Assembly: GCF_003334785.1 (NCBI RefSeq)
Contig: NZ_QOWV01000010.1
Reading direction: 5' to 3' (one strand)
DNA from: Escherichia coli
GTDB taxonomy: Bacteria; Pseudomonadota; Gammaproteobacteria; Enterobacterales; Enterobacteriaceae
Length of the DNA stretch: 64,000 nucleotides
Part shown: piece after piece, positions 9,024 to 9,580 of the stretch
Layout of the letters: every line of letters starts with the position of its first letter
How positions within the stretch are numbered: position 1 is the stretch's first letter
Notes under the pieces: generated by a model
What the model saw: only the letters and a program-made list of their open reading frames with translations
What the model was told of the DNA's origin: nothing
Database searches by the model: none
Translations under genes and position numbers: made by a program

Positions 9024-9052
9024 TTTAATTCTTGTATTGTGGGGGCACCACT

Positions 9053-9580
9053 TTGAGCACGACTAACCATGATCACCACATTTACGTCTTGATGGGCGTA
9101 TCGGGCAGCGGCAAATCTGCGGTCGCCAGTGAAGTGGCGCATCAACTTCATGCCGCGTTTCTTGATGGCGATTTCCTCCATCCACGGCGCAATATCGAAA
9201 AAATGGCGTCTGGCGAACCACTGAATGACGACGATCGCAAACCGTGGTTGCAGGCGCTGAACGACGCCGCGTTTGCTATGCAGCGCACTAATAAAGTGTC
9301 GCTGATCGTCTGTTCTGCATTGAAAAAACACTATCGCGACTTGCTGCGTGAAGGTAATCCGAATCTCTCTTTCATCTATTTGAAAGGCGATTTTGATGTG
9401 ATTGAAAGCCGCCTGAAAGCGCGCAAAGGCCATTTCTTTAAAACCCAAATGTTGGTGACGCAGTTTGAAACGCTGCAGGAGCCGGGTGCGGACGAAACCG
9501 ATGTACTGGTGGTGGATATCGATCAACCGCTGGAAGGTGTTGTGGCAAGCACCATTGAGGTTATTAAAAAAGGCAAATAA
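9053..9580 (+). CDS. gntK: thermoresistant gluconokinase (175 aa)
   Basis: P-loop GVSGSGKSAV; known protein begins at STTNHDHHIYVLMG, implying a TTG start at 9053 (ATG at 9032 in the ORF track would add 7 aa); start choice is from memory. Confidence 0.85.
   Translation: MSTTNHDHHIYVLMGVSGSGKSAVASEVAHQLHAAFLDGDFLHPRRNIEKMASGEPLNDDDRKPWLQALNDAAFAMQRTNKVSLIVCSALKKHYRDLLREGNPNLSFIYLKGDFDVIESRLKARKGHFFKTQMLVTQFETLQEPGADETDVLVVDIDQPLEGVVASTIEVIKKGK

Follow-up and report, generated by a model that had tools for sequence, protein, structure and literature searches.

The gluconokinase gene gntK raises a simple question in the stretch of Escherichia coli DNA analysed here (64,000 nucleotides, called the window below), namely at which of its possible start codons the protein is initiated. 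In the mechanical list of open reading frames, the longest frame at this place runs from 9032 to 9580 and encodes 182 amino acids, with TTG as its first codon and a translation that begins MYCGGTTLSTTNH... (as listed, MYCGGTTLSTTNHDHH...). This frame has no further 5' extension, because an in-frame TAA lies at 9026-9028. The leader letters around 9000 read ...ACAATGTTACCGATAACAGTTACCCGTAACATTTTTAATTC and are followed by TTG TAT TGT GGG GGC ACC ACT TTG AGC ACG ACT AAC CAT, in which the second in-frame TTG, at 9053-9055, precedes the residues STTNHDHH. The original prediction preferred this second codon to an ATG at 9032. Actually, the letters show TTG at 9032 as well; the 'M' in the ORF track is a display convention for any initiator codon, and what has to be decided is thus which of two TTG codons, separated by 21 nt, is used. 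As for the preferred codon itself, annotation, the PDB sequence, the profile boundary, the Shine-Dalgarno (SD) sequence and a comparison of 80 genomes all agree with the prediction that GntK starts at the TTG at 9053 as a protein of 175 residues (M-STTNHDHH...). We put at about 0.97 the probability that gntK is translated from the UUG at 9053 by ordinary SD-led initiation, and that the UUG at 9032 is a chance triplet in a non-coding leader. The features discussed below are collected in Table 1.

Table 1. Features of the gntR-gntK-gntU region, in window coordinates
Feature	Position	Strand	Basis
gntR, LacI-family repressor of gluconate genes	7919..8914	+	
Putative CRP-like site TTTGAagtagcTCACA, centre 8931.5	8924..8939	.	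conserved block, resemblance to consensus
Inferred -35 hexamer TTGCTT, within conserved block ATTGCTTCTC	8967..8972	+	alignment
Inferred gntKU -10 hexamer GACAAT, which overlaps the operator	8990..8995	+	fixed 17 nt from TTGCTT across genera
Predicted GntR operator region, imperfect 31-bp palindrome with two overlapping 16-bp sites	8993..9023	.	repeat, consensus, conservation
In-frame TAA closing the frame 5' of 9032	9026..9028	+	
Upstream in-frame TTG, the earliest start open to the mechanical ORF, judged unused	9032..9034	+	without SD, in a variable spacer
Shine-Dalgarno GGGGG, 7 nt before TTG 9053	9041..9045	+	duplex with 16S 3' tail, -8.4 kcal/mol
gntK TTG initiation codon	9053..9055	+	aligned codon TTG 78/81, ATG 3/81; third-position periodicity begins here
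gntK CDS, gluconokinase, 175 aa, TTG start, TAA stop 9578-9580	9053..9580	+	RefSeq, PDB, NCBIfam
gntU, gluconate transporter, GTG start	9584..10924	+	

We begin with the annotation and the protein boundaries. The match in K-12 MG1655 is identical over 8701-9645 of the window, and of 5426 complete E. coli genomes, 5425 contain the 801-nt stretch 8850-9650 with at least 95% identity, under the names gntR, gntK and gntU. RefSeq (PGAP) gives gntK as a 528-nt CDS that maps to 9053-9580 of the window, in strain 720632, in strain N96 and in K-12 (NP_417894.2). The K-12 protein accession stands at version 2, which suggests an earlier revision. The gluconate kinase of PDB entries 1knq, 1ko1, 1ko4, 1ko5, 1ko8 and 1kof has 175 residues, which are ORF residues 8-182; residues 1-175 of 1knq chain A are identical to the window protein, with residue 1 at ORF residue 8. 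From this identity to the crystallised 'Gluconate kinase', the product is predicted to be gluconate kinase. The NCBIfam equivalog NF008583 matches with 372.3 bits (cutoff 265), and its profile position 1 falls on ORF residue 8, the codon at 9053. The original prediction had proposed a comparison with curated GntK entries, and RefSeq, PDB and NF008583 are shown to begin all at ORF residue 8. In addition, the model TIGR01313, which describes GntK and IdnK together, scores 241.5 bits against a cutoff of 113.75, and its core does not start before ORF residue 18, so that the seven-residue extension is needed by neither GntK nor IdnK. The Walker A P-loop (GxxGxGKS/T) is found as GVSGSGKS at residues 15-22 of the 175-aa form. 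The UniProt entry P46859 is presumably the 175-aa GntK with its initiator Met removed. The basis of that entry is reportedly N-terminal protein sequencing of GntK by Izu et al. in 1996. Our full-text literature search gave no E. coli paper on the gntK start or on its transcription start site (TSS), and no gntK entry was found in the covered parts of the supplements on initiation profiling and N-terminomics (Stringer 2021, TRAINSPOTTER 2026, Meydan 2019).

The start at 9053 is thus already known, being present in the reference annotation, in the curated family model and in the crystal structures. Since the correct TTG is already in use, the result brings nothing new for gluconate metabolism or for translation initiation, and its significance is one of annotation hygiene only: longest-ORF calling adds seven spurious residues, and these persist in a few public records. 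Among public protein records, at least 1000 contigs carry the 175-aa form (GNTK_ECOLI), compared with 25 for the 182-aa form, which comes mostly from older O157:H7 submitter annotations such as EC4115, TW14588 and EC869. These 182-aa records reflect the choice of a gene caller, not an experiment. Altogether three N-termini of GntK exist in public databases, giving 182 aa, 175 aa (the reference) and 163 aa from Met14, the last in a record of E. albertii TW07627 that is named 'shikimate kinase'.

The region upstream of gntK contains the palindrome which the original prediction placed with its end at 9023, 30 nt before 9053. The inverted-repeat search finds it with arms at 8993-9007 and 9009-9023 that are 87% complementary. 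The GntR operator consensus, which we take to be a palindromic sequence of ~16 bp, ATGTTACCGGTAACAT, is matched by the 16-mers at 8994-9009 with two mismatches and at 9007-9022 with three; such matches number three in the window, while 0.15 are expected by chance. Among the aligned sequences the operator is nearly invariant across genera. Binding by GntR in E. coli, with the repression relieved by gluconate, is said to have been described by Izu in 1997 and by Peekhaus and Conway in 1998. On the whole, the conserved blocks of the gntR-gntK intergenic region follow one another in the order of the CRP-like site, ATTGCTTCTC, a spacer of variable sequence and fixed length (17 nt), and GACAAT with the operator. 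Judged from these blocks, TTGCTT and GACAAT with the 17 nt between them probably form the gntKU promoter, with a TSS near 9002-9003, which falls within the first operator. For a TSS at 9003, the centre of the CRP-like site would be at about -71.5, a standard class I position. The two hexamers are weak, as is typical of CRP-dependent promoters, and a generic scan for sigma-70 promoters over 8850-9150 of the plus strand gives no match. The gntKU promoter, a CRP site and two GntR-binding elements were reportedly described by Tong et al. in 1996 and by Izu et al. in 1997.

With a TSS near 9002-9003, the leader would be ~50 nt long. The earlier claim of a very short leader therefore falls away, since it took the end of the operator for the start of transcription. 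The suggestion that the initiation context may be regulatory does not find support either: the segment 9002-9100 folds with -16.1 kcal/mol, while shuffled sequences average -18.4 (z = +0.76), so that sequestration of the ribosome-binding site is not supported, and the initiation region shows no regulatory feature. Neither gntK nor its coordinates were found in the covered parts of published TSS tables (Conway 2014, Ettwiller 2016, Kim 2012, Mendoza-Vargas 2009). Both TTG codons would be on this mRNA; consequently the TSS does not decide between them, and the decision comes from the SD sequence and from conservation.

Elsewhere in the window, a third GntR-operator-like 16-mer, ATGATACGGGTAACAT, is present at 40248-40263, together with a second GTTACCCATAAC element at ~40109-40120. 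Both are located 5' of a minus-strand ORF (38771..40087, 438 aa) beginning MPLVIVAIGVILLLL..., which looks like gntT with two operators, so a second GntR-controlled promoter may be present in the window.

The spacing of the ribosome-binding site, the other analysis that had been proposed, separates the two codons clearly. The GGGGG located 7 nt before 9053, inside the canonical range of 4-9 nt, pairs with the 16S tail at -8.4 kcal/mol, whereas the 20 nt 5' of 9032 are A/T-rich and give +0.6 kcal/mol, with no SD. Across 81 sequences (those of 80 orthologous loci and the window), a purine-rich SD (GGGGG, GGGAG, GGAGG or GAGGG) is present 4-7 nt from the aligned start in all 81, with a duplex energy averaging -8.1 kcal/mol and ranging from -5.6 for the weakest to -11.8. 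The G at -10 (9043), which is part of the SD, is invariant in 81 of 81. The C at -2 (9051) is invariant in 81 of 81 too, although neighbouring leader positions vary. In the initiation that we propose, the 30S subunit would pair with GGGGG at 9041-9045 and thereby bring the UUG at 9053 into the P site. The product would be the 175-residue gluconokinase MSTTNHDHH..., with STTNHDHHIYVL... as its N-terminus once Met is removed, and the 182-aa 'MYCGGTT...' ORF would be an artefact of longest-ORF calling.

The 80 loci, all in Enterobacteriaceae genomes, come from an orthologue scan with one genome per species, at a protein identity of 90-99%. Among the genera represented are Escherichia, Salmonella, Citrobacter, Klebsiella, Raoultella, Enterobacter, Kosakonia, Kluyvera, Leclercia, Lelliottia and Buttiauxella. 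The codon aligned with 9053 is TTG in 77 of the 80 and ATG in the remaining three (Yokenella, Trabulsiella and Buttiauxella). Upstream, the alignment shows that the segment from the operator to the SD, which contains 9032, varies in both sequence and length. The distance from operator to start takes values of 17, 19, 23, 24, 27-34, 40, 41, 44 and 73-86 nt and is thus not bound to steps of three. For example, a 1-nt insertion in the Citrobacter freundii group shifts the homologous TTG out of frame, and in Salmonella this TTG is also out of frame, with TAG directly after it. An in-frame initiator at -21 is present in only 15 of 81 sequences, with unrelated peptides (LYCGGTT, LHLWGLP, LSLWERP), and in 36 of 81 the frame contains no initiator codon of any kind from the nearest upstream stop to the aligned start. 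Minor alleles, counted by codon position, amount to 37/16/199 in codons 2-14 and to 271/224/199 in the 21 nt upstream of the start; the former is the signature of translated sequence, the latter has no periodicity. The widest distances belong to the Klebsiella/Raoultella group, where an extra GC-rich segment of ~50 nt stands between the GntR operator and the gntK SD, ~75 nt upstream of locus position 1501 (loci L025, L026, L029, L030, L033, L034, L040, L046, L047, L056 and L064), and the operator lies 73-86 nt from the start, compared with 17-44 nt in the other loci.

These results allow the other possible starts to be weighed. One may suppose that initiation is dual, mostly at 9053, and that Escherichia also makes a small amount of a proteoform with an extended N-terminus from 9032. 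E. coli in general has known cases of alternative in-frame starts, and the -21 TTG with its peptide LYCGGTT is indeed retained within Escherichia and a few Citrobacter; this retention, however, is accounted for by the short time of divergence and by the overlap of the site with the SD, the codon is not conserved beyond such close relatives, and a UUG without SD is a very poor initiator. We therefore regard a minor product from 9032 as very improbable. That 9032 is the start proper, so that the native protein is the 182-aa MYCGGTTLSTTNH... form with the N-terminus (M)YCGGTTLSTTNH..., is hardly credible. It is true that the open frame has no earlier initiator-type codon than 9032, that this codon would lie on the inferred transcript and that some GenBank submitter annotations use it. 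Against this, it lacks an SD (+0.6 kcal/mol), and the coding sequence would then contain the SD at 9041-9045. Nor do the seven extra codons show conservation at the protein level: most genera have them out of frame or not at all, and Enterobacter, Leclercia and Lelliottia, where the operator-SD segment is essentially deleted, lack them altogether. The curated profile and the PDB sequence, which begin at residue 8, also speak against it. A start at ATG 9092 (Met14), giving in K-12 a 162-residue protein that begins MGVSGSGK, may practically be dismissed: this is the first in-frame ATG and was chosen in the one old GenBank record of E. albertii (163 aa there), but no SD precedes it, residues 1-13 are present in both the profile and the PDB sequence, and codons 2-13 vary mostly at the third position while their amino acids are conserved, so that the count of 37/16/199 argues against this start as well. 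The UUG at 9053 is thus retained as the start of gntK. A 210-aa ORF on the minus strand (8894-9526) spans most of gntK; in all likelihood it is a shadow of the gntK reading frame.

It is also of interest to discuss why the start codon is a weak one. Only a minority of E. coli genes begin with UUG, which is used far less often than AUG. The next gene of the operon, gntU, begins with GTG at 9584, 3 nt after the gntK stop. Its start could be resolved in 78 orthologous loci (of L003-L082) and is GTG in 60 of them, TTG in 18 and ATG in none, at positions from a 1-nt overlap to 21 nt after the gntK stop. Taken with the mostly TTG start of gntK, this shows a family-wide use of non-ATG starts in the two genes of the operon. 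One could imagine that selection across Enterobacteriaceae maintains the weak UUG of gntK and the never-AUG start of the tightly coupled gntU so as to throttle translation of gntKU; if so, replacing either of them by AUG would change the fitness of cells on gluconate. We find this unlikely. The first T of the gntK start codon has a major-allele frequency of 0.96, compared with a mean of 0.67 at 48 fourfold-degenerate sites in the same genes, and when all changes are counted it is more conserved than 47 of the 48. Since only T to A or T to G keeps a usable start, the comparison was also made with transversions only, and there 11 of the 48 sites are as conserved as the start T or more so; with this count, special selection for TTG itself is not demonstrated.

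Finally, we compare the window gene with known systems. The GntK of E. coli K-12 (thermoresistant gluconokinase, b3437, NP_417894.2, PDB 1KNQ) is the same protein, identical in all 175 residues, and its TTG start, its gntR-gntK-gntU context and its upstream DNA are those of the window, with no difference. The paralogue IdnK/GntV of the GntII system (NF007336) belongs, like the window protein, to the GntK/IdnK-type kinase fold family TIGR01313; with the IdnK profile, whose cutoff is 304, the window protein reaches 183.9 bits and is thus not IdnK. In infC, the AUU start stands in an autoregulatory context, whereas for gntK neither such a context nor a significant leader structure is seen. The gene is rather like other E. 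coli genes with a UUG start, in which a well-spaced SD precedes the UUG and the initiator tRNA supplies fMet, as in gntK.
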